A stretch of DNA of 64,000 nt, from contig CBDCVA010000002.1 in NCBI GenBank assembly GCA_965222935.1, positions 1,035,442-1,099,441 on the forward strand, in the 5' to 3' direction. The translations under genes were made by a program, and so were the position numbers. Shown one piece after another: positions 53,176 to 64,000 of the stretch. The stretch is from Candidatus Latescibacterota bacterium (GTDB lineage Bacteria > Latescibacterota > CBDCVA01). The notes beneath the pieces were generated by a model. It saw only the letters and a list, made by a program, of their open reading frames with translations, was not told where the DNA came from and did no database searches. The number at the start of each line of letters is the position of its first letter. Within the stretch, counting starts at the first letter, position 1.

Positions 53176-55017
53176 GTGAGTGCCGCCACGACCTTCGACA
53201 GCACGAAGGACTACCTCTCTTTATTCCTCGCCGACATCGCGCAGGGCAAGACGCAGTTGCCCGACTTCCAGCGTGACTGGCTCTGGGATGACCAGCGCAT
53301 CGTCAGCCTCCTTGCTAGCATTTCGCAGTCCTTCCCGATAGGCGTGGTGATGATGCTTGAGACGGGCAGCGATGCAGTTCGGTTCAAGCTCAGGCCCGTT
53401 GAGGGAGTTCCAGAAGAGTCTATCCGGGCGGAGCCCGAACGGCTCATCCTCGACGGTCAGCAGCGGCTGACGGCGCTGTTCCAGGCACTCCAGTCCGGTA
53501 AGGCGGTGGCCACCAGGGACACGCGGCGCCAGAAGACCTTACGCTGGTATTACCTCGACATGACCAAGGCGCTGAACCAAGACGACGAGCGCGAGAATGC
53601 CATCATCAGTCTTCCCAAGAATCGCCGGACACGCGATTTTCGTGGCAATGTCATTGACGACTACTCTTCGCCGGATAGCGAGTACGCTGCCTGCTTGTTT
53701 CCCCTCGCTAAGGTGTTCAACTACGCGGATTGGCGTTGGGGGTTCAACAAGTACTGGAACTACGCTCCTGAGAAGGGGGAGCTCTTCGATGCCTTCGAGC
53801 AGGAGATCGTCAAACGGTTCGAGCAATATCAGATCCCGCTCATCCTCCTGAAGAAGGGAACCCCGAAGAAAGCGGTCTGCCAGGTCTTTGAGAAGGTCAA
53901 CACTGGCGGGGTGTCTCTGAGCGTCTTCGAGCTGCTCACTGCCACCTATGCTGCCGACAATTTCCGTTTGCGGGAGGACTGGGATGCCCGGCAGAAGCAG
54001 CTCGCCAAGCACCCTGTGCTGGAGGACATTCAGAGCAGCGACTTCCTGCAGGCCGTCACGTTGCTCACGACACGCGACCGACGTGAGAAAGCGCTCGGTC
54101 AAAGCGTTGCTGCGGACAGGGCTCCTGGGATCAATTGCAGGCGAGAGGCAATCCTGGACCTGGAGGACTACGAAGCCTGGGCCGACCACGCGACCGTCGG
54201 TTTCGAAAAAGCTGCGAAACTTCTCTTCAGTCAGAAGCTCTTCGATTCCCGCGATCTTCCCTATCGTACCCAACTCACACCCCTGGCCGCGATCCTAGCG
54301 ACGCTTGGCGACCGATCAGAGAAAGATGGTGTGCGCGCGAAGCTCATCCGCTGGTACTGGTGCGGCGTCTTCGGCGAGTTGTACGGAGGGTCAATCGAAA
54401 CGAGGTTTGCGAACGACCTTCCCGAGGTTCTCGACTGGATCGATGGCGGCCCAGAACCGGCGACGGTCGTTGACGCCAACTTTGCGGCCGTTCGCCTTCT
54501 CACGCTGCGGACACGCAATAGCGCCGCTTACAAGGGCTTGTACGCTCTCTTGCTGCGCAATGGCGCATGGGACTTCCTCTCCGGGGAAACGATCGACGTG
54601 CAGATGTACTCCGATGACAAGATCGATATCCACCACATTTTCCCGAGAGCCTGGTGTCTCGAGAAAGAGGTTGACGCGAACCGGTGCGACAGCATCGTCA
54701 ACAAGACTCCTTTGTCCGCTAGAACCAACCGCATAATCGGCGGAAAGCCCCCCAGCATCTACCTGCCCCGCATACAGAGGCTCGCTGGCATTGACGAGAG
54801 CAGAATGAACCAGATCTTGCAGTCGCACGTGATCGACCCTGAAGCCCCGCGAGCGGACGACTTCGAGGCGTTCTGGAAGAAGCGAGAGGAAGCACTGCTT
54901 GACCGCATCGAGAAGGCGATTGGGAAACCCATCGCGCGGGATATGCCGGTGGCTGAAGCCGAGACAGGAGAAACAGAAGAAGATGAACCGGATGAGGACG
55001 CTGCTCAGGACGACTGA
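53176..55017 (+). CDS. DUF262-DUF1524 two-domain protein (GmrSD/BrxU-like type IV restriction endonuclease family)
   Basis: N-terminal DUF262 hallmarks LPDFQRDWLWDDQRIVSLLASI and ILDGQQRLTAL; C-terminal DUF1524/His-Me-finger-like DIHHIFPRAWC...NKTPLSARTNRIIGGKPP; acidic tail. GTG start with GGAG RBS. G+C visibly lower than neighbours. Confidence 0.7.
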   Translation: MSAATTFDSTKDYLSLFLADIAQGKTQLPDFQRDWLWDDQRIVSLLASISQSFPIGVVMMLETGSDAVRFKLRPVEGVPEESIRAEPERLILDGQQRLTALFQALQSGKAVATRDTRRQKTLRWYYLDMTKALNQDDERENAIISLPKNRRTRDFRGNVIDDYSSPDSEYAACLFPLAKVFNYADWRWGFNKYWNYAPEKGELFDAFEQEIVKRFEQYQIPLILLKKGTPKKAVCQVFEKVNTGGVSLSVFELLTATYAADNFRLREDWDARQKQLAKHPVLEDIQSSDFLQAVTLLTTRDRREKALGQSVAADRAPGINCRREAILDLEDYEAWADHATVGFEKAAKLLFSQKLFDSRDLPYRTQLTPLAAILATLGDRSEKDGVRAKLIRWYWCGVFGELYGGSIETRFANDLPEVLDWIDGGPEPATVVDANFAAVRLLTLRTRNSAAYKGLYALLLRNGAWDFLSGETIDVQMYSDDKIDIHHIFPRAWCLEKEVDANRCDSIVNKTPLSARTNRIIGGKPPSIYLPRIQRLAGIDESRMNQILQSHVIDPEAPRADDFEAFWKKREEALLDRIEKAIGKPIARDMPVAEAETGETEEDEPDEDAAQDD

Positions 55018-55056: not shown

Positions 55057-56094
55057 ATGAAAGCTGTTTACAAAATGCGCCCCGAGCCCGGCGCCATCGA
55101 GGTCCGCGAGGTGACCCCCAAGCCCTTGAGCCCCACCGAGATTCGCATCCAGCCCGTCGGCTCCAATATCTGCGGCTCCGACATCGGAGCCTACCACTAC
55201 GCGCCCGCCTTCCACTACATCAAGCCGCCGTTCATCATGGGCCACGAGTTCGCGGGCACGGTCGTCGAGATCGGCGCCCGCGTCGAGCGCATCAAAGTCG
55301 GCGAGCGCGTCTACCCCGAAGCGGTCAAGTACTGCGGCCATTGCACCCAGTGTAAGCGCGGCAGGACCAACATCTGCCAGAACTTCGTCATCTTCGGGCT
55401 GCACACCGACGGCGGCATGTGCGAGCTGGCGACCTTCGACGAGAAATACGCCCACCGCGTTCCCGAGGGCATGACCCTGGAGCAGGCCACCTACATCGAG
55501 CCTACCTCCGTGGGCGTCCACGCCGTCACGGGCCACGACAATCGATTCGAGGCCCATGACCTCGTCGTCGTCGCCGGCGTGGGGCCCATCGCGCTTCTCG
55601 CCGCCCAGGTCGTCCGAGCCACGCGCACGCCCAATGTCATCACAACGGGACTCGACGTGGATGAGGCCATTCGCTTCCCCATCGCACGGCAGATTGGCCT
55701 GGAACCGGTCAACATCCAAAAGACCGACCTGGCCGAGCTGGTCAATGAGCGGACAGACGGACGCGGAGCCGACGTCTTCGTCGAAGCCTCGGGCGCACCC
55801 CGAGCGATGGTGCAGGGCGTCGAGATTCTCAAGAAGGGCGGCCTGTTCATCATGGTCGGCATCCAGGAGGGCGAGGCCACGATGGCGATGGCCCCGATGA
55901 TCCGCAAGGAGATACGCATTCAGGGGACCATCAGCGGCCACTGGAAGGACTTCGAGGCAGCAGCTCAGCTTATCGCCAAGGGGGATGTCCGGGTGGACCC
56001 GCTCATGGCCCAGTTCCCGATGGAGCGCGTCGAGGACGCCTTTGCGGCCGTGCAGGACCGATCGGTCATCAAAGCGATGGTCGTCCCGGACTAG
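55057..56094 (+). CDS. zinc-dependent alcohol/polyol dehydrogenase (MDR superfamily)
   Basis: CGSDIGAYH, GHEFAG, CGHCTQCKRG, VVAGVGPIALL. Confidence 0.85.
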   Translation: MKAVYKMRPEPGAIEVREVTPKPLSPTEIRIQPVGSNICGSDIGAYHYAPAFHYIKPPFIMGHEFAGTVVEIGARVERIKVGERVYPEAVKYCGHCTQCKRGRTNICQNFVIFGLHTDGGMCELATFDEKYAHRVPEGMTLEQATYIEPTSVGVHAVTGHDNRFEAHDLVVVAGVGPIALLAAQVVRATRTPNVITTGLDVDEAIRFPIARQIGLEPVNIQKTDLAELVNERTDGRGADVFVEASGAPRAMVQGVEILKKGGLFIMVGIQEGEATMAMAPMIRKEIRIQGTISGHWKDFEAAAQLIAKGDVRVDPLMAQFPMERVEDAFAAVQDRSVIKAMVVPD

Positions 56095-56129
56095 GGGCCC
56101 CGGCGCAAGCCTAAAGCGAGGAGAATCCG

Positions 56130-56834
56130 ATGACCCCAGACGGCAACCCTCTGATCGTGCTGATGCACACCTCCCTCGTCACGATGAAGAGCATCGTCGA
56201 GGACACCATCGGGGAGATGATCCCCGAGGCGGTCGTCAAGAACGTGATGGATGATACGCTTCTCATGGATGTCATGGCCCACCCGGAGGGGCCGACCCAT
56301 AACGTCAAGCGCCGCTGCGCCGAGTACGCCATGGCCGCTCAGGACGCGGGCGCCGACGTGATCTTCAACGTCTGTTCTTCGGTCAGGGAGGCGTACCACC
56401 TCGCCAAAGAGGTCGTGGACGTGCCGCTGCTCAACATCGACGAGCCGATGGCTGAGGCAGCCATTGGGCGCGGGACGAAGATCGGCATGGTCGCCACGGG
56501 CAGGAGCACGTTCGAGCCCACGACGCGCCTTCTCTACCGCAAGGCGGAGGCGGCGGGGGTGGAGATCACGGTCGAGCGGACGCTGCTTCAGGAGGCCTTC
56601 GACGCCCTGGTCGCGGGCGACGAGCAAAAGCACAACGACCTGCTGGTCGGCGAGATCACGCGCCTGGCGGGCATCTGCGACGTCGTCGTTCTGGCGCAGG
56701 GCTCGATGGCGCGCGTGGTGCCCTTGCTGCCACCCGAGGTGCAGCGGAAGACCATCACCAGCCCCCGGCTGTCGGTCGAGCGCGCCAGGGCGTTGCTCAA
56801 GGAGCGGCTGGCGGATGTGGCCGTAGCGGCGTGA
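56130..56834 (+). CDS. Asp/Glu/hydantoin racemase-like protein (family assignment tentative)
   Basis: Two-lobed alpha/beta pattern with ...IFNVCSSV... and ...VVVLAQGSMA... segments reminiscent of Asp/Glu racemase-superfamily enzymes. Confidence 0.4.
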   Translation: MTPDGNPLIVLMHTSLVTMKSIVEDTIGEMIPEAVVKNVMDDTLLMDVMAHPEGPTHNVKRRCAEYAMAAQDAGADVIFNVCSSVREAYHLAKEVVDVPLLNIDEPMAEAAIGRGTKIGMVATGRSTFEPTTRLLYRKAEAAGVEITVERTLLQEAFDALVAGDEQKHNDLLVGEITRLAGICDVVVLAQGSMARVVPLLPPEVQRKTITSPRLSVERARALLKERLADVAVAA

Positions 56835-56897
56835 GGCGGATCTCCACCCCAGGTGGAGTGCTCCGTGACCCACACCTGAACCACTGGAGGCAACAGC

Positions 56898-57998
56898 GTG
56901 TCCAAAGACCTTCTAGGCGTCGGCATCGTCGGCTGCGGCGGCATTGCGAATAACCATGCCAAGGGTGTGATCGATTCGGGCGAGGGGCGCCTCGCCGCGT
57001 TATGCGATACCTTGCCCGAGCGAACCTCCGACTACGCCGAGCGGTACGCGCCGGATGCGAAGCAGTACACCGATAGCCGCGAGTTGTGCGCCGATCCGAA
57101 CGTGGACGCCATCCTCGTCTGTACGCCGCACGGCTCGCACTGCCGCGTTCTAGCCGAAGCGGCCGAGGCGGGGGTGCACGGCATGTGCGAGAAGCCCATG
57201 TCGAATGATCTGCGCGAGTGCGATAAGGCCATCGAGGCGCACAAGAAAGCGGGCACCAAGCTCGGCGTCATCCACCAGCGACGCTACTACAACGCCAGCC
57301 AGCGCCTTCGCCGCGCCATCGATGAGGGCAGGCTGGGGAAGCCCATCCTGGGCGACATCGTCGTCAAGTGGTGGCGCGGACCCGACTACTACGCCCGCGA
57401 CTCCTGGCGCGGCAGGTGGGACACCGAAGGCGGCGGGGTTTTGGTCAACCAGACGCCCCATCAGCTCGACGCCCTCGGATGGTATATGGGGCCGGTCGAG
57501 TGGGTCCACGGGATGTGGTCGGCCAACAAGCCCTATATGGAGTGCGAGGACACCGCGGTCGCCACGGTGAAGTTCCGTTCCGGTGGACTGGGGATGATCC
57601 AGGTCTCCATCTCCCAAAACCCCAACCTCTTCGCCCGCGTCACCATTCACGGCGACAACGGCAAGTCGGCCAGCATCTACGAGCACGGGGAGGGCGCCGT
57701 CTTCACCAACGACATCTGGACCCTCCCCGGCGAGGAGGATCTGCCCCAGAAGTGGGCCGAGGAGGACTTCAAGACCGAGACCTTTCAGGGTAACCACGCC
57801 AAGCAGATCCGCGATTTCCTGGAGGCTATCAAGGAGGACCGCGAGCCGTACGTCGGAGGCGAAGAGGGGCGCAAGACCGTGGAGCTCATGGTCGCCATCC
57901 TGCTCTCGGGCAGGCTGGGCGAGACGGTCCACTTCCCCGTCGAGCCGATGAGCACCACGATGGCCGCCATCGACCGGGAGGCCACCAACTACGCGTGA
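56898..57998 (+). CDS. Gfo/Idh/MocA-family oxidoreductase
   Basis: GVGIVGCGGIANNH Rossmann start, CEKPM motif, ...WRGRWDTEGGGVLVNQ... shared with the next paralogue. Confidence 0.85.
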   Translation: MSKDLLGVGIVGCGGIANNHAKGVIDSGEGRLAALCDTLPERTSDYAERYAPDAKQYTDSRELCADPNVDAILVCTPHGSHCRVLAEAAEAGVHGMCEKPMSNDLRECDKAIEAHKKAGTKLGVIHQRRYYNASQRLRRAIDEGRLGKPILGDIVVKWWRGPDYYARDSWRGRWDTEGGGVLVNQTPHQLDALGWYMGPVEWVHGMWSANKPYMECEDTAVATVKFRSGGLGMIQVSISQNPNLFARVTIHGDNGKSASIYEHGEGAVFTNDIWTLPGEEDLPQKWAEEDFKTETFQGNHAKQIRDFLEAIKEDREPYVGGEEGRKTVELMVAILLSGRLGETVHFPVEPMSTTMAAIDREATNYA

Positions 57999-58041
57999 AT
58001 TCCCTTGGCGCCATGGACGATATCTGCCGCCGCGCTCAAGA

Positions 58042-59163
58042 ATGCCCGCACGGCCTCAGCGCCGGTGGCCGTGCGGGGGGGCCGAAGCTAACCTCTTGGA
58101 CCCCATAGGCGTCGGGATCGTCGGGGCGGGCCACATTGCGCCTCAGCACGCCGAGGCGCTCAGAGGTCTTGAGGAGGCCCGCTTGATCGCCGTCTGTGAC
58201 ATCGTCGAGGGGAAAGCCGAGACGCTCGCGGATCGCTTCGGTGCCCCCAAAGTCTACGATGACGTCGAGAAGCTCGTGCGTGATCCTGACATCGAGGCGA
58301 TCTGCGTCACCACCCCCCACAAGTGGCACGCACCGCCGGTCGTCGCCGCCGCCGGGGCGGGCGTCCACGCGCTCTCCGAGAAGCCCATGGCCGCCGACCT
58401 CGCCGACTGCGACCGGATGATCGAGGCGCACCGGAAGGCGGGCACTAAGCTCGGCGTCATCTTCCAGCGGCGCTGGTCCCCGGGGGCGCGCCGCATCCGC
58501 GACGCCATCGACGCCGGCAAGTTCGGCGAGCGGCTGGTCCTCGGCGACTGCGTCTTCAAGGGCTGGCGCGGACCCGATTACTACGCCTTAGACCTATGGC
58601 GCGGCAGGTGGGACACCGAAGGCGGGGGCGTTCTGCTCAACCAGTCGATCCACTCTATCGACTTGCTACAATGGTACATGGGCCCGGTGAACGCGCTGTG
58701 GGGCCAGTGGGGCAACATGAACCACCCTTACGTCGAAGTCGAGGACACGGCGTGCGCCGTCCTGCGCTTCAAGTCGGGGGCCTTGGGCGTCATCGAGAAC
58801 TCGGTGAGCCAGAACCCGCAGGTCTACGTCAAGGTGGCCGTCCACGGCTCCAACGGCGCCAGCGCCGACGTCGTCCTCGAAGGTCCCCACGCCGAGGAGG
58901 GCGCCAACGAAATCTGGACGATCCCTGGAGAAGAGGCACCGGGACGGGAGCCCGCGAAACCCATCGGCACCAGCCGGGCGGCAGTCGAGTACCACAGGGC
59001 TCAGATTCAGGACTTTCTCCAGGCCATCCGCGAGGATCGCCAGCCGGTCGTGAACGGCGAGGAAGGGCGCAAATCCATCGAGATCATCACGGCGATCTAC
59101 CGCTCTCAGGCCACCGGCGAGGTCGTCCGCTTCCCCGTGCCTACCGATGACTTCAGGGGGTGA
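58042..59163 (+). CDS. Gfo/Idh/MocA-family oxidoreductase (paralogue)
   Basis: GVGIVGAGHIAPQH, SEKPM, ...WRGRWDTEGGGVLLNQ...; true start is probably downstream of the ORF-track start. Confidence 0.85.
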   Translation: MPARPQRRWPCGGAEANLLDPIGVGIVGAGHIAPQHAEALRGLEEARLIAVCDIVEGKAETLADRFGAPKVYDDVEKLVRDPDIEAICVTTPHKWHAPPVVAAAGAGVHALSEKPMAADLADCDRMIEAHRKAGTKLGVIFQRRWSPGARRIRDAIDAGKFGERLVLGDCVFKGWRGPDYYALDLWRGRWDTEGGGVLLNQSIHSIDLLQWYMGPVNALWGQWGNMNHPYVEVEDTACAVLRFKSGALGVIENSVSQNPQVYVKVAVHGSNGASADVVLEGPHAEEGANEIWTIPGEEAPGREPAKPIGTSRAAVEYHRAQIQDFLQAIREDRQPVVNGEEGRKSIEIITAIYRSQATGEVVRFPVPTDDFRG

Positions 59164-59346
59164 GGTGCGGCACTTGCCTCGGAAGCCGAAAAGTGCGAAT
59201 CTAAAGGGTCTTGAAAAGGCACGCTGTGAGAAGGAGCGGCTCGCTCCCGGCCACAGCTATCAGTCCTATAGAACATAGCACTGTCAAGGGTCGTTTTTCA
59301 TGCACGCGACTGGCGCTCTAGAACGCTATACTCAGGGGGCAATCCG

Positions 59347-60381
59347 ATGAAAGCTGTCGTCAAATATGGCTACGGCCCTGGCAAGGTGGAACTCAGGGAC
59401 ACGCCGGAGCCCGAGGTCGGGCCGGGGCTGGTGAAGCTTCGCGTGAAGGCGGCGGGGATCTGCGGGAGCGATTTACACGCCTATCACGAGATGATCAAGT
59501 TCAACTTCAAGTACCCGGTGATCGTCGGCCACGAATTCGCCGGCGACGTGACCGAGGTTGGTGAGGGCGTCGAGGGCATCGAGGTCGGCGAGCGGGTGAC
59601 GAGCGAGACGACGGCCATCAACTGCGGCGTCTGCGAGTACTGCCGCACCGGCTACTACAATATGTGCCTGAGCCGGTCCGTCGTCGGCTACGACTGGGAT
59701 GGCGGGTTCACCAGCTACTGCGTCGTGCCCCAGAAGAACATCCACAAGCTCCCCGAGAACGTGGACTACATCGCCGGTGCGCTCACCGAGCCCTTGGCCT
59801 GCTGCATCCACGGCGTCACCGAGCAGACGGGCATCAACGCGGGCGATCTCGTCCTGATCGTCGGCCCCGGGCCGATTGGGCTTTTGACCCTTCAGGTCGC
59901 CCTAGCCGAGGGCGGGCAAATCGTCATCTGCGGGACAAGCCAGGATGCGGGGCGACTTAAGATCGCCGAGGATCTGGGCGCCGATTATGCCCTGAACGTC
60001 GAGGAGACCGACGTCGTCAAGTTTGTGGGGGACCTCACCGGCGGCTACGGGGCCGACATCGTCCTCGAATGCTCCGGCGCCGAGAAGGGCGCACAACTGG
60101 GCATCGAGGCCGCCCGCAAGCGCGGCAAGTACACGCAGATGGGCCTCTTCGGCAAGCCCATCACCCTTGATTTCGAGCGCATCGCTTACAAGGAGCTTCA
60201 AGTGACCGGCTTTCTCTCGCAGAAGCGGAGCGCCTGGCAGCGCGCGCTCAAGCTCGAAGCGCAGGGCAAGATCAGTCCCAGCAAAGTCGTCAGCCACCAG
60301 GTGCCGATAGACGAGTGGAAGCGCGGCTACGAAATGAGCGAGAACAAGGAAGCGCTCAAAGCGATCATCATCCCCGAATAG
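59347..60381 (+). CDS. zinc-dependent alcohol/polyol dehydrogenase (MDR superfamily)
   Basis: CGSDLHAYH, GHEFAG, CGVCEYCRTG, LIVGPGPIGLL; the 3' end is duplicated at 62045-62116. Confidence 0.85.
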   Translation: MKAVVKYGYGPGKVELRDTPEPEVGPGLVKLRVKAAGICGSDLHAYHEMIKFNFKYPVIVGHEFAGDVTEVGEGVEGIEVGERVTSETTAINCGVCEYCRTGYYNMCLSRSVVGYDWDGGFTSYCVVPQKNIHKLPENVDYIAGALTEPLACCIHGVTEQTGINAGDLVLIVGPGPIGLLTLQVALAEGGQIVICGTSQDAGRLKIAEDLGADYALNVEETDVVKFVGDLTGGYGADIVLECSGAEKGAQLGIEAARKRGKYTQMGLFGKPITLDFERIAYKELQVTGFLSQKRSAWQRALKLEAQGKISPSKVVSHQVPIDEWKRGYEMSENKEALKAIIIPE

Positions 60382-60384
60382 CCG
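60313..60384. repeat. left copy of a ~72-bp direct repeat (3' end of the ADH gene) flanking the methyltransferase insert
   Basis: gagtggaagcgcggctacgaaatgagcgagaacaaggaagcgctcaaagcgatcatcatccccgaatagcc recurs at 62045-62116 with one 1-nt indel and one substitution. Confidence 0.85.
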
Positions 60385-60391
60385 GATACGT

Positions 60392-61402
60392 ATGTGCCCA
60401 CGTTACTCTGAAGGAATTTCTCCTTCACAATTGCCGATCCCCACTGAGGCGTTTACGGCTAAACCGGGTGATAGCACCTTAAGGCGCGCGGCGTTCGACG
60501 CAAAAGCGGCCTCCGGCAAGCACGTCATATACAACGTTGACGCTTTCGCATGGCTATCCGAGCAGCCATCGAACTCGGTTCAAGCGGTTGTGACTGATCC
60601 GCCGTACGGCCTCCTTGAATATCGACCCGAGGAACTCGAGAAAATGAAGCATGGCCGGGGAGGCGTCTGGCGCATCCCGCCGAGCTTCGATGGCGCCAAG
60701 CGCAGGCCGCTGCCCAGGTTCACTGTGCTAAGAGACCAGGATAAGGCTGAGCTTGAGGCGTTTTTCAGGCGATTCTCAGAGGCACTTCTACCGGTTCTTG
60801 TGCCTGGAGCCCACGTTTTCGTTGCGACGAACCCGCTTGTCTCGTATCTGGTCTACGGGCCTTTCATTGAGAACGGATTCGAGCCGCGCGGTGAGATCAT
60901 CCGGGTTGTTCAACGGCTACGGGGAGGCGACAGGCCCAAAAACGCCCACAAGGAATTCGCTGGGGTAACGGTCCTACCGAAGTCTTGCTGGGAGCCTTGG
61001 GGATTGTTCCGCAAGCCGTGCGAGGGTCGTGTCCAGGACAACCTGCGTGAGTGGAAAACAGGAGGATTGCGGCGCATCTCGCCAGAGGAGCCTTTCAAGG
61101 ACCTGATAGAGTCGTCTCCGACCAGACGTACCGAGTTCTCGATAGCTCCGCACCCGTCCCTGAAACCACAGCGCTTCATGCGCAAACTCGTCAGGGCCGC
61201 TCTGCCTCTAGGTGAGGGGATCATCCTTGATCCCTTCATGGGGTCGGGTTCTACAATCGCGGCGGCGGCGGCTGAGGGGGTACAGAGCGTCGGCCTGGAG
61301 ATTAGCCCGGAGTACTTTCACCTGGCAGTTGAGGCCATACCGAAGCTGGCGGCGCTTGAAGTGTCGGAGCAGAACCGCAACGGCACGAACTCAGGACTTT
61401 AA
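60392..61402 (+). CDS. DNA methyltransferase, N6-adenine/N4-cytosine type (beta-class motif order)
   Basis: Catalytic DPPY (...AVVTDPPYGL...) precedes the SAM-binding FxGxG motif (ILDPFMGSGST); visibly lower G+C. Confidence 0.8.
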   Translation: MCPRYSEGISPSQLPIPTEAFTAKPGDSTLRRAAFDAKAASGKHVIYNVDAFAWLSEQPSNSVQAVVTDPPYGLLEYRPEELEKMKHGRGGVWRIPPSFDGAKRRPLPRFTVLRDQDKAELEAFFRRFSEALLPVLVPGAHVFVATNPLVSYLVYGPFIENGFEPRGEIIRVVQRLRGGDRPKNAHKEFAGVTVLPKSCWEPWGLFRKPCEGRVQDNLREWKTGGLRRISPEEPFKDLIESSPTRRTEFSIAPHPSLKPQRFMRKLVRAALPLGEGIILDPFMGSGSTIAAAAAEGVQSVGLEISPEYFHLAVEAIPKLAALEVSEQNRNGTNSGL

Positions 61403-61508
61403 CCCAAGTGTACCGCTGCCCCCTATACTTAGAATCCGGGCCATTCGTTCGTCGATCGAATACATCGAGCGCGAGTTGAACGAACTTGTCGACATATACT
61501 TTGAACAG

Positions 61509-62000
61509 ATGAATGTTTTTAGTGCCCTGGTGGGGATATTTGGGACTCGTGCCCTTGACCAACACAGCGTCTATGAGAAAGTCAGGCATACAGACATTGC
61601 CCAAACCCGATTTCCAGACCTCCGACGCAAGGGAAGTGGACTAAACCCACGGCCAAGTGAATGCCTGGAGTCCAAGGCGAGCAAGAGGCCCTGGCAACTT
61701 CAGTCGCACTACGACCACGAAGGATGGTACATTGTCTGGCGCTACCTGGTAGATGCAACGGCTTCAATTGAGTTGGAGAAGCACGTGATTGTATGGCGCG
61801 TCGATGTGGCCTACTTACGAGGTGAGGACTGGAAGTACGAAGGCAGCAGGGCTGGAATTGCCGGGGGCGGTCGCACGCATACCTTTGGCCTCAAGCAGCC
61901 AGCGAAGAGACTCCAGGGGTGTGCTGTCTATCGCCGCTCGGACATTGTGCTCTCTGGAGGCAAGCCCGTTCCGGCCAACAGCCACAACCATGCTCAGTGA
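61509..62000 (+). CDS. hypothetical protein; candidate cognate restriction endonuclease of the adjacent methyltransferase
   Basis: ORF directly downstream of the methyltransferase, same strand, same low-GC insert; weak PD-(D/E)xK-like segment YLVDATASIELEKH; start uncertain (TTG at 61476 or ATG at 61509). Confidence 0.3.
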   Translation: MNVFSALVGIFGTRALDQHSVYEKVRHTDIAQTRFPDLRRKGSGLNPRPSECLESKASKRPWQLQSHYDHEGWYIVWRYLVDATASIELEKHVIVWRVDVAYLRGEDWKYEGSRAGIAGGGRTHTFGLKQPAKRLQGCAVYRRSDIVLSGGKPVPANSHNHAQ

Positions 62001-62044
62001 CGCCGGGACCACGATATGTCTCAAAAGAAAAAGCGTGAGGGCAC

Positions 62045-62116
62045 GAGTTGGAAGCGCGGCTACGAGATGAGCGAGAACAAGGAAGCGCTCAAAGCGATCA
62101 TCATCCCCGAATAGCC
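62045..62116. repeat. right copy of the ~72-bp direct repeat (ADH 3'-end copy)
   Basis: gagttggaagcgcggctacgagatgagcgagaacaaggaagcgctcaaagcgatcatcatccccgaatagcc. Confidence 0.85.
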
Positions 62117-62139
62117 AAACCGGACGGGAGACAAAGAGC

Positions 62140-64000
62140 ATGAGCCTGGAGGCACGACTGGGGTGGGAGGCGACGCACGCCCGCCGCCTGATCATCGAGA
62201 TGACCACCAAAGCGGGTTCGGGGCATCCCACCAGCAGCATGTCGCAGACGGAAACCGGGATCGTTCTGTTCTACACACAGATGGTCCACGACATCGAGAA
62301 CCCTGATAACCCGAACGCCGATGTGTTCGTCTGGTCCAAGGGCCACGCCGCGCCGCTGCTGTACGCGCTGATGGCCAAGACGGGTTACATCCCCGAAGAA
62401 GAGTTGGGGACGCTGCGCCAGACGGGGAGCCGCCTCGAAGGCCACCCGACGATGAAGCTCCCCGGGATCGTGTACCCCACGGGCTCGCTGGGCCAGGGCC
62501 TCTCTGTCGCCGTGGGCCAGGCCATCGCCGATAGGCTGAACGGTCTCGACCGCCGTGTTTTCGCTCTATTGGGCGACGGCGAATGCGACGAGGGCGCCAT
62601 CTGGGAAGCCGCCATGAGCGCCCCGCATCACGCCCTCGACCGCCTTATCGTTGTCGTGGACCGTAACCGCATCCAGCAATCGGGCCGCGTGAACCAGATC
62701 ATGGGCACCGACCCGCTCGACCGGAAGTTCGAGGCCTTCGGCTGGCTGACTCAGGTTTGCAACGGCCACGACATCGGCCAACTTCTGCGCGCGTTCGAGT
62801 GGGCCGTCGGCAACATCGGCACGGGCCAGCCTTCGGTCATCGTCGCCGAGACGAAGAAGGGCAGGGGCTTCTCGAAATCCGAGGACGCTCTGGGCCGCCA
62901 CGGTAGGGCGCTGCCGCCCGAGGAGCGCGACGAGGCCCTCGAGAAAGATCTCGCCTTGGCCGACCCACCCCCTAGCGATCCCATCGAGCTCAAGCGCGCG
63001 AGGCCTGCGCCCTCGCAAGACGGCAGTCTCGGCTCTTTCGACATCCCGCCGCCCGCGTTCAAGGTGGGCGAGAAAGCCGCCGCGCGCGAAGGCTTCCGGG
63101 ATGGGCTTGTGAAGCTGGGGGCCGTCAACCCCAAGGTGCTCTGCGTGACCGCGGACATGTCCAACTCGACCTTCAGTGATGCCTTCATGGAGAAGTATCC
63201 CGAGCGCTCGATCGAGTTCGGCATTGCCGAGCAGAATATGATCGGCGCTGCGCAGGCGCTGGCGCGTAGCGGCTTCATCCCCGTGGTCAACAGTTTCTGC
63301 CGCTTCATGGTGGAGCGACCCGTGGACCAGATCGAAGTTACCGCATACAGCGGCGTCGCCTTCCCGCTGGTCGGCAGCCACCCGGGGCTCTCCTCCAGCG
63401 ATCAAGACGGCGTCACGCAGATGGGGCTGATGGACTGCGCCATCATGCGCTCGATCCACAACACGGTGGTCTGCAACGCTGCGGATGCCGTCGCGGGCGA
63501 GAAGCTCTTCATCGAGGTCGCCCGCTATCGAGGCGGGCTCGGCTACTTGCGCTGCTTCAAGAACCCGCAAGACGTTATCTATCCCGCCGAGACGGAGTTC
63601 CCCCTGGGTGGAGCACACGTCCTGCGGGAATCCGACGACGATGCCGTCACGGTAGCTGCGACGGGCTGGGTCGTGCACGAGGCGCTGGAAGCCTACGAGA
63701 CGCTAAAGGCCGAGGGGATCGCCATTCGTGTCATCGACGCCTACTCCCTCAAGCCTGTCGCGCGGGACGTGCTGCTCGAAGCCGCTGAGGCCACGGGTGG
63801 GCGGATCATCACCGTCGAGGACCACAACATCACGGGCGGCCTGGGTGACGCGGTGCTGGAGGCTATGGCGGAGACGGATGTTCGGATCACGAAGATGGGC
63901 GTCACGCGCTTTCCCGAGTCCGGCCTCACGAAGGATCTCCTGCGCAAGTTCGGCTGTGGCGCCGATAACGTCGTGCAGCAGGTCAAGGCGCTCTTCGGAG
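62140..64000 (+). CDS. transketolase-family protein, fused N-terminal (TPP-binding) and C-terminal (pyrimidine-binding) sections; 3' end runs off the window
   Basis: MSLEARLGWEATHARRLIIEMTTKAGSGHPTSS...LLGDGECDEGAIWEA... then ...FGIAEQNMIGAAQALARSGFIPVVNSFCRF... in one frame. GGGAG RBS 9 nt before the ATG at 62140; no stop before the window end, so absent from the ORF track. Confidence 0.8.
   Translation, partial: MSLEARLGWEATHARRLIIEMTTKAGSGHPTSSMSQTETGIVLFYTQMVHDIENPDNPNADVFVWSKGHAAPLLYALMAKTGYIPEEELGTLRQTGSRLEGHPTMKLPGIVYPTGSLGQGLSVAVGQAIADRLNGLDRRVFALLGDGECDEGAIWEAAMSAPHHALDRLIVVVDRNRIQQSGRVNQIMGTDPLDRKFEAFGWLTQVCNGHDIGQLLRAFEWAVGNIGTGQPSVIVAETKKGRGFSKSEDALGRHGRALPPEERDEALEKDLALADPPPSDPIELKRARPAPSQDGSLGSFDIPPPAFKVGEKAAAREGFRDGLVKLGAVNPKVLCVTADMSNSTFSDAFMEKYPERSIEFGIAEQNMIGAAQALARSGFIPVVNSFCRFMVERPVDQIEVTAYSGVAFPLVGSHPGLSSSDQDGVTQMGLMDCAIMRSIHNTVVCNAADAVAGEKLFIEVARYRGGLGYLRCFKNPQDVIYPAETEFPLGGAHVLRESDDDAVTVAATGWVVHEALEAYETLKAEGIAIRVIDAYSLKPVARDVLLEAAEATGGRIITVEDHNITGGLGDAVLEAMAETDVRITKMGVTRFPESGLTKDLLRKFGCGADNVVQQVKALFG

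Follow-up and report, generated by a model that had tools for sequence, protein, structure and literature searches.

How does a pair of restriction-modification genes come to lie between two copies of the end of another gene, in a chromosomal setting without any recombinase gene? This question is raised by a stretch of 64,000 nucleotides from the genome of a Candidatus Latescibacterota bacterium (contig CBDCVA010000002.1, positions 1,035,442 to 1,099,441; hereafter the window), in which a short unit carrying a DNA methyltransferase gene (M) and a nuclease gene (R) separates a zinc-type alcohol dehydrogenase (ADH) gene from a transketolase gene. Our analyses make it likely that this is a type II restriction-modification unit that was inserted with a long target duplication, that its nuclease is decaying and that it can be lost by recombination between the repeats flanking it. 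CAGCTG is its predicted recognition site.

The two repeat copies (60316-60383 and 62049-62116) differ at only one of their 68 positions (A at 60333, G at 62066), and when a 1-nt indel is allowed they match at 73 of 74 nt (60311-60383 and 62043-62116). This is close to the ~72-bp recurrence of the ADH 3' end reported in an earlier interpretation made from the letters of the window by themselves (the sequence-only reading), and the lower G+C content described there for the insert was borne out as well, at 0.572 compared with 0.652 in each flank and 0.636 in the whole window. Despite the insertion the ADH reading frame has been kept whole, with its 3' end duplicated, and the ADH protein is identical on contigs with and without the insert. 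The proposed search for an uninterrupted ADH 3' end turned up two empty sites, which uphold the claim of an insertion. A contig from the same population (L003) has no unit and one repeat copy, and in a sister species (L172, with a transketolase 87% identical) ADH is followed by transketolase 26 nt later with no unit; the distance from the ADH stop codon to transketolase in empty sites is about 25-26 nt. The uninterrupted junction in the sister species indicates that the empty state is ancestral. A more distant strain (L173; 96.1% identity across 9 kb) shares the insertion and its exact junctions, and its divergence from the window is equal inside and outside the insert (identity of 96.6% for M, 94.4% for R and 94.5-98.1% for the flanks), indicating that the unit has been inherited vertically since before this ~4% strain split.

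A duplication introduced by assembly or scaffolding, an outcome that the sequence-only reading had named as refuting its claim, has practically no chance of explaining these data. Short-read contigs do break inside the repeat, and L171 ends in both copies. However, both junctions and both repeat copies recur in the independent assemblies L001, L173 (ENA) and L171 (Logan), with the left junction also confirmed by L002 (ENA) and L004/L005 (JGI). In addition, the copies differ from each other by one single-nucleotide polymorphism (SNP) and an indel, they bear copy-specific SNPs, and strain-specific SNP patterns differ between them. An assembly artefact is thus excluded by the recurrence of the junctions and the copy-specific SNPs.

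Restriction-modification units lying between long direct repeats are known as "insertion with long target duplication" (Nobusato 2000; Furuta, Abe and Kobayashi 2010, PMC2853133), and the window case is a member of this class. M and R homologues are the only genes in the insert and no mobility gene is present, the insert is 1,665 bp (<20 kb) and the duplication 68 bp (>30 bp), and L003 and L172 each have one copy to which both repeats align. The lower G+C of the insert is a further likeness to the published cases, and in those from H. influenzae the duplicated stretch likewise takes in the end of the gene upstream. Whereas the published cases are mostly single events in cultured proteobacteria, with the mechanism left open, one gene pair is responsible here for at least 8 independent events in uncultured phyla, a series of occupied, empty and decayed alleles exists within one population, and one unit elsewhere (L119) carries the repeat of its previous site.

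We propose that insertion with long target duplication brought the unit into the chromosome directly behind the ADH stop, with the left end of the unit joined 2 nt past the stop and its right end 68 nt upstream. Ends joined at such staggered positions would account for the duplicated ADH 3' end and for the intact state of both ADH and transketolase. The last bases of the 3' spacer of the unit (ACGAG plus 1 nt) are a copy of the 5 nt preceding the left repeat, constituting a microhomology at the right junction, and a right-junction microhomology was also found in L019 (9 nt). The joining may have been illegitimate and assisted by the 5-nt microhomology, with no recombinase in cis. Indeed, no recombinase gene was found in the insert or among the adjoining genes (oxidoreductases, transketolase and 2-oxoacid dehydrogenase E2), in agreement with the absence of an integrase already noted by the sequence-only reading. 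A promoter and terminator scan of positions 59000-62400 gave no promoter-like site for the unit and was otherwise uninformative. As the ATG of M lies 10 nt past the ADH stop, transcription of the promoterless unit likely relies on read-through from ADH. After restriction has ceased, repeat-by-repeat recombination could remove the entire unit precisely, restoring the empty site, and the same recombination between the repeats might also mobilise it. A 32-codon open reading frame (ORF) at 62016-62114 (MSQKKKREGTSWKRGYEMSENKEALKAIIIPE), called by the gene caller in L001, is a fusion of the 3' spacer to the right repeat and is probably meaningless.

We examined whether the same gene pair is flanked by repeats at other sites. 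Tight repeats, here meaning direct repeats that are 25 nt or longer and lie no more than 450 nt from the M-R core, were found at 13 of 114 loci, compared with 3 of 402 size-matched pseudo-units taken from the same loci (Fisher p = 5e-7). The flanking repeats have unrelated sequences, are 31-259 nt long and stem from the 3' ends of different upstream, co-oriented genes (Table 1), with L065 the sole case in which the 5' end of a gene is duplicated instead. Repeats at L085 (a 28-nt REP-like repeat with several copies) and L016 (27 nt, 93%) probably arose by chance and were set aside. In 7 events the edge of the repeat that faces the unit lies between -2 and +3 nt relative to the final nucleotide of the stop codon, and in L019 it lies at -18. 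Selection for intact genes together with read-through explains the proximity to stop codons and the co-orientation, but not obviously the tightness. Inspection of the target sites by eye revealed no convincing shared breakpoint motif, a CCGG-rich context being expected at this G+C.

These junctions also bear on site-specific integration, which the sequence-only reading had in mind when it likened the repeats to attL and attR. The unit would then be a non-autonomous cassette carrying its own copy of the ADH 3' end, with the 68-bp repeats as attL and attR and an integrase acting in trans. The architecture does resemble that of integrase islands that insert into, and restore, the 3' ends of genes and tRNA genes: the repeats come from the 3' end of the target and the target gene is intact. 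Furthermore, the repeat copies in L145 and L165 differ at their tails, which encode diverged alleles of one C-terminus (for example, APDGSSVVSV and ADNGSFVVSV, each followed by the stop), so units can travel with a repeat copy. However, no integrase is present in the insert or its neighbourhood, no att core is conserved, and repeat length and sequence vary by site. Nucleotide homology between loci (64-72%, 80 loci) is confined to the coding regions, positions 60517-61985 of the window, leaving no conserved terminal sequence outside the genes, and the distance from unit to repeat varies as well (1-58 nt in most loci, longer in L019 and L065). We therefore consider site-specific integration highly improbable, and the comparison with attL and attR was not sustained. 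The diverged C-termini in L145 and L165 indicate that homologous recombination also carries units, along with a repeat copy, from one diverged relative to another. We likewise reject a transposon-like model, since there are no conserved ends or terminal inverted repeats and homology stops inside the two genes.

Movement of a unit from one gene to another has left a trace in L119. This unit is 88% nucleotide-identical to the units at PdxJ sites, compared with ~67% for unrelated family members, and its present site, downstream of an acetolactate-synthase-like gene, has a 49-nt duplication of its own. Past the nuclease stop and ahead of this new repeat, the unit retains a 36-nt remnant of the pdxJ 3' end, which is the same as the repeat at the PdxJ sites (L119 4457-4534; counterparts at L144 4609-4645 and L158 3383-3421), joined to the new target via a 9-nt microhomology (GCCGGCCGG). 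The remnant indicates that the unit moved between genes with one old repeat copy. This is what excision by repeat recombination followed by re-insertion predicts, and it matches the excision and re-insertion step included in the life cycle proposed by the Kobayashi group. The corresponding spacer of the window unit (48 nt) showed no trace of a former target when it was set against L168, the nearest relative. A bolder possibility is that the M-R pair is itself an autonomous, recombinase-free mobile element that leaves as a circle with one repeat copy and re-inserts behind the stop codon of a transcribed, co-oriented gene by break- or replication-coupled joining. The stop-codon edges of -2 to +3 nt in 7 events, the pdxJ repeat in L119 and the nested empty allele described below would fit this reading, which we nonetheless regard as quite unlikely; if true, the long-hypothesised "virus-like life cycle" of restriction-modification systems would gain a defined target rule. 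Two of the PdxJ sites, L144 (2953-3043) and L158 (1810-1822), have a common right junction and different left junctions, with L144 keeping a promoter-bearing leader of ~80 nt between the pdxJ stop and the M ATG and L158, like the window, only ~11 nt. Other units have a ~100-nt leader with TTGAC...TATAAT-like boxes, and loss of the unit's own promoter with fusion to an operon appears to be recurrent.

What does the unit encode? The M product matches Pfam PF01555 (E 5.5e-17) and PADLOC MTase_II PDLC03215 (E 2.7e-111, profile positions 54-329 of 331), and among solved structures in the PDB it is closest to beta-class enzymes, including RsrI, MboIIA, DpnA and CcrM. DPPY (residues 69-72) stands ahead of FMGSGST (~270), an order that the sequence-only reading had recognised, and this provides the beta-class layout of motif IV before motif I with the recognition domain between them. 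DPPY is the adenine-binding form of motif IV (PMC7544214, which also gives the beta-class definition), and the product is therefore probably N6-methyladenine.

For the nuclease, the ORF proposed from the letters alone (61509..62000) proved too short. More than 2,700 homologues of ~202 aa span 97% of the translation from 61407 and start with M-(A/V)-R-x-x-D-F upstream of the start first chosen, which places the gene at 61380..62000, overlapping M. This overlap is 23 nt long in the window and usual among relatives, and suggests that M and R are translationally coupled. The PD-(D/E)xK-like segment suspected earlier was confirmed: P79-D80 and E97-x-K99 (E97-S-K99 in the window) are invariant in the family and lie on consecutive strands of an AlphaFold model built from a 40-sequence alignment (pLDDT 88.1, pTM 0.85). 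Foldseek searches with this model gave weak matches to SfiI, BglI and EcoRV, and on the strength of the model R is predicted to be a PD-(D/E)XK endonuclease of the EcoRV/SfiI/NaeI structural branch. Counting against this placement, the fold match is remote, with at most 15% identity among the restriction-enzyme matches and no Foldseek E-value below 1e-3. Window R differs from the EcoRV/SfiI/BglI/NaeI branch in this low identity and in lacking any match to a family model (Pfam, NCBIfam or PADLOC; the best PADLOC match was at chance level, E 0.045) or to PDB sequences, even at E = 10. A filter-free profile search among 1.84 billion representatives yielded 249 matches, mostly fragments, and no remote relatives. 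The R family is closed, compact and isolated, with no remote sequence relatives to tie it to a named enzyme. Membership in an unrelated family devoid of a nuclease fold, against which the sequence-only reading had cautioned, did not materialise, as no family matched and a nuclease fold was modelled.

An M homologue lies directly upstream of R on the same strand in all 135 loci with enough upstream DNA. With a methyltransferase linked so regularly to a nuclease-fold gene, the compact type II restriction-modification module envisaged by the sequence-only reading gained support, and by its gene content the islet is such a two-gene unit, in which the methyltransferase would protect the palindromic site that the nuclease cuts. 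R relatives were found in 333 of 185,579 species (one genome scanned per species) and on >550 metagenome contigs. The 80 loci kept from the species scan are all from metagenome-assembled genomes and belong to Planctomycetota, Chloroflexota, Acidobacteriota, Nitrospirota, Proteobacteria, Armatimonadota, Latescibacterota, Verrucomicrobiota and others. Searches by tblastn found no R homologues in 72,556 plasmids or 50,697 phage records, and only 2 among 2.9 million viral contigs (IMG/VR), where the neighbour is an IS1595 transposase in one case and a Bro-N gene in the other (L166 4068-4994 and L167 4139-4969). With hardly any homologues in these collections, plasmids and phages are no obvious vehicle. 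The closest relative of the window unit (L168, 467-1687; 82% nuclease identity) lies just downstream of an ISL3 transposase; the ISL3, IS1595 and Bro-N neighbours are occasional links of the family to other mobile DNA.

Within the population of the window, R exists in several states (Table 1). The ACG in place of the start codon and the 71-bp deletion are in different alleles, and the nuclease has thus been disabled, or at least attenuated, at least twice independently. M, by comparison, is 99-100% conserved across sibling contigs and intact in every occupied allele. The alleles suggest a nuclease that is decaying while the methyltransferase persists, with the window methyltransferase probably active and its nuclease probably inactive. 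The gene pair reported by the sequence-only reading is thus real, but as a restriction-modification module it is probably reduced in the window to a functional methyltransferase, the nuclease gene having lost its ATG. Loss of R with retention of M is the usual route by which restriction-modification systems decay to orphan methyltransferases. The likeness to orphan methyltransferases lies in the disabled R, the intact M and the two independent R lesions in one population; the difference is that decay is in progress, as the intact L173 allele coexists and the R ORF remains open past the lesion.

Two points speak against an inactive nuclease. Both lesions (61380-61508 region; L001 8040-8130) spare the ORF from Met44 (ATG 61509), and ACG may permit trace initiation. 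The window system might still restrict, by low-level nuclease made from the ACG or by a shortened protein from TTG 61476 or ATG 61509. Relative to the intact R of L173, the window-lineage changes cluster in codons 1-18 (M1T, V2A, D8N, G16I, G18R), the rest being conserved and the ORF otherwise intact, and it is possible that a shortened R product is under selection. Low-level expression of a type II system is also reported to give potent phage resistance (PMC7315355). However, the truncation removes the long helix 19-42 of the model, gene callers give only a 174-aa product, and the empty allele suggests that the unit can be lost without killing the cell. Moreover, ACG is a very poor initiator in bacteria. 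Continued restriction is thus unlikely, though not far-fetched, and we favour decay of the nuclease.

The empty L003 allele matches the flanks of the window at 99.5-99.8% identity and is thus much nearer to them than L173 is. It holds derived alleles of the window clade, polarised with L172 and L173, both 5 nt to the left (60378 A) and 17 nt to the right (62133 A) of the junction, and hence it nests inside the occupied clade. Since window-clade alleles flank the junction on both sides, precise loss is the simplest reading of L003, and we think it probable that the unit was removed by recombination between the 68-bp repeats. Weighing against excision, the case rests on the phylogenetic nesting of one 2.4-kb contig, and a presence/absence polymorphism of long standing, combined with recombination tracts that stop at the junction, is an alternative. 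The repeats also show signs of exchange with each other: a derived G-to-A change, relative to L173 and L172, is common to both window copies (60378 and 62111), indicating that they evolve in concert by gene conversion.

We sought to predict the recognition site from its avoidance in host DNA. CAGCTG does not occur in the window outside the insert, where 9.7 sites are expected under a maximal-order Markov model (P = 6e-5). The pooled flanks of hosts other than Dehalococcoidia (807 kb) contain 52 sites, with 206.5 expected (observed/expected 0.25, z = -10.8), making CAGCTG the most under-represented of 2,066 hexamers, with the next at z = -7.3. It is the most avoided palindrome in Planctomycetota (6 observed, 51 expected), Acidobacteriota, Nitrospirota and Proteobacteria. 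The insert-free sister species L172 does not avoid it (4 observed, 5.6 expected), and three of its CAGCTG sites are CACCTG, CAACTG and CAACTT in the window. Six unselected control loci, a small set, gave an observed/expected ratio of 0.65. Other palindromes under-represented in the window are AAGCTT (5 observed, 16.2 expected), CTCGAG (23 and 47) and GGATCC (9 and 21.7).

Several findings detract from this prediction. Two of the six control loci show some CAGCTG avoidance, and Dehalococcoidia hosts (L017, L019, L020, L022, L025, L029, L033, L041, L042, L051, L052 and others) carry the same pair without avoiding CAGCTG (45 observed, 49 expected), so that either specificity differs there or the system arrived recently. 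In addition, the DPPY of M points to adenine methylation, unlike M.PvuII, which is to our knowledge the only characterised CAGCTG methyltransferase and makes N4-methylcytosine. On balance we give CAGCTG about an even chance of being the recognition site. The most-avoided palindromes of the Dehalococcoidia hosts are ACATGT and CTCGAG.

The prediction invites comparison with PvuII. Both systems combine a small PD-(D/E)XK endonuclease of the EcoRV-like branch with a beta-class amino-methyltransferase of ~336 aa, and avoidance in host genomes predicts the same target for the window pair. However, there is no sequence relationship, and M.PvuII is not among the PDB sequence matches of window M. Motif IV of M.PvuII is of the N4-cytosine type, whereas window M has the adenine-type DPPY. 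The window genes, furthermore, are ordered M then R, co-directional and overlapping, and no C-protein gene was found with the pair. Membership in the PvuII family was thus rejected for lack of homology of either M or R, the unit being PvuII-like at most in how it works.

Could the pair serve the host instead, as a Dam/MutH-like module for methyl-directed nicking and repair or for epigenetic control? The unusually high identity of ~70% across phyla would then reflect a housekeeping-like role. We consider this very unlikely. The pair is sporadic, occurring in only 333 of the 185,579 species genomes; it is polymorphic for presence and absence, has a foreign composition and occupies many unrelated insertion sites; its nuclease is repeatedly inactivated with the methyltransferase kept; and hosts have purged one palindromic hexamer. 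Such sporadic spread, polymorphism, R decay and hexamer purge are signatures of restriction-modification.

How restriction-modification genes move without a recombinase has been a question since "insertion with long target duplication" was described in 2000. The present family offers a clean system, being a minimal 1.6-kb pair found in hundreds of species and many phyla with at least 8 independent insertions. A single population combines an empty allele, an intact one and two that have decayed in different ways; one unit elsewhere bears the footprint of its previous site, and junctions lie regularly at stop codons. New relative to the literature consulted are the unannotated endonuclease family, its predicted site, and data on insertion, decay, probable excision and re-insertion for one minimal unit. 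The R family is also large (>2,700 sequence clusters), lacks a model in Pfam, NCBIfam or PADLOC, and comes with a concrete predicted specificity. For annotation of the window, the methyltransferase is probably active, the nuclease probably not, and ADH is intact.

Table 1. Features of the window unit, its alleles, and the genes that gave rise to flanking repeats at this and other loci (coordinates refer to the window unless a locus is named).
Feature	Position or locus	Strand	Remarks
Target gene, zinc-type alcohol dehydrogenase (ADH)	59347..60381	+	Pfam ADH_N 1.1e-30, ADH_zinc_N 9.9e-26
Direct repeat, left copy	60316..60383	+	ADH 3' end including stop TAG (60379-60381) plus 2 nt
Inserted unit, 1,665 bp	60384..62048	+	Absent from L003 and L172
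M, beta-class amino-methyltransferase, 336 aa, intact	60392..61402	+	PF01555, PADLOC MTase_II
R, predicted PD-(D/E)XK restriction endonuclease, 206 codons	61380..62000	+	Unannotated ~202-aa family; overlaps M by 23 nt
Lost start codon, ACG	61380..61382	+	ATG in L001, L173 and most homologues; a few GTG or TTG
Segment deleted in L001, 71 bp	61431..61501	+	Between two TATACTT repeats; frameshift, stop after codon 17
3' spacer of the unit, 48 nt	62001..62048	+	Between R stop and right repeat
Direct repeat, right copy	62049..62116	+	Non-functional ADH 3' remnant, then native ADH-transketolase spacer
Transketolase, native downstream neighbour of ADH	62140..64000	+	Pfam; empty sites of L003 and L172
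Intact allele	L173		206-aa nuclease gene with ATG
Start-lost allele	Window, L002, L171		ACG at 61380-61382
Deletion allele	L001 (8040-8130)		ATG kept, 71 bp deleted
Empty allele	L003		No unit, one repeat copy
Repeat source, ADH	Window		
Repeat source, GFO/IDH/MocA oxidoreductase	L068		
Repeat source, DinB-like polymerase	L084		
Repeat source, acetolactate-synthase-like enzyme	L119		
Repeat source, PdxJ	L144, L158, L163		
Repeat source, Asparaginase_2	L140, L165		
Repeat source, prephenate dehydrogenase	L145		
Repeat source, membrane protein	L019		

The surroundings of the islet hold a second variable defence locus ~5 kb upstream. A GmrSD-family type IV (modification-dependent) restriction enzyme is encoded at 53176-55017 (613 aa, PF03235 1.2e-27, G+C 0.585), and the segment 53149-55042 that contains it is replaced by a GrpB gene in L001, L002 and L173. 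The neighbourhood at 55057-59163 includes paralogous pairs, with two Zn-ADH genes (55057..56094 and the target gene) and, nearby, two GFO/IDH/MocA oxidoreductase genes that are ~75% identical to each other in DNA. Relatives of the window transketolase show 98% and 87% identity and then 50% or less (Sericytochromatia, Armatimonadota and others), and by this measure of sequence similarity the window organism is phylogenetically isolated.

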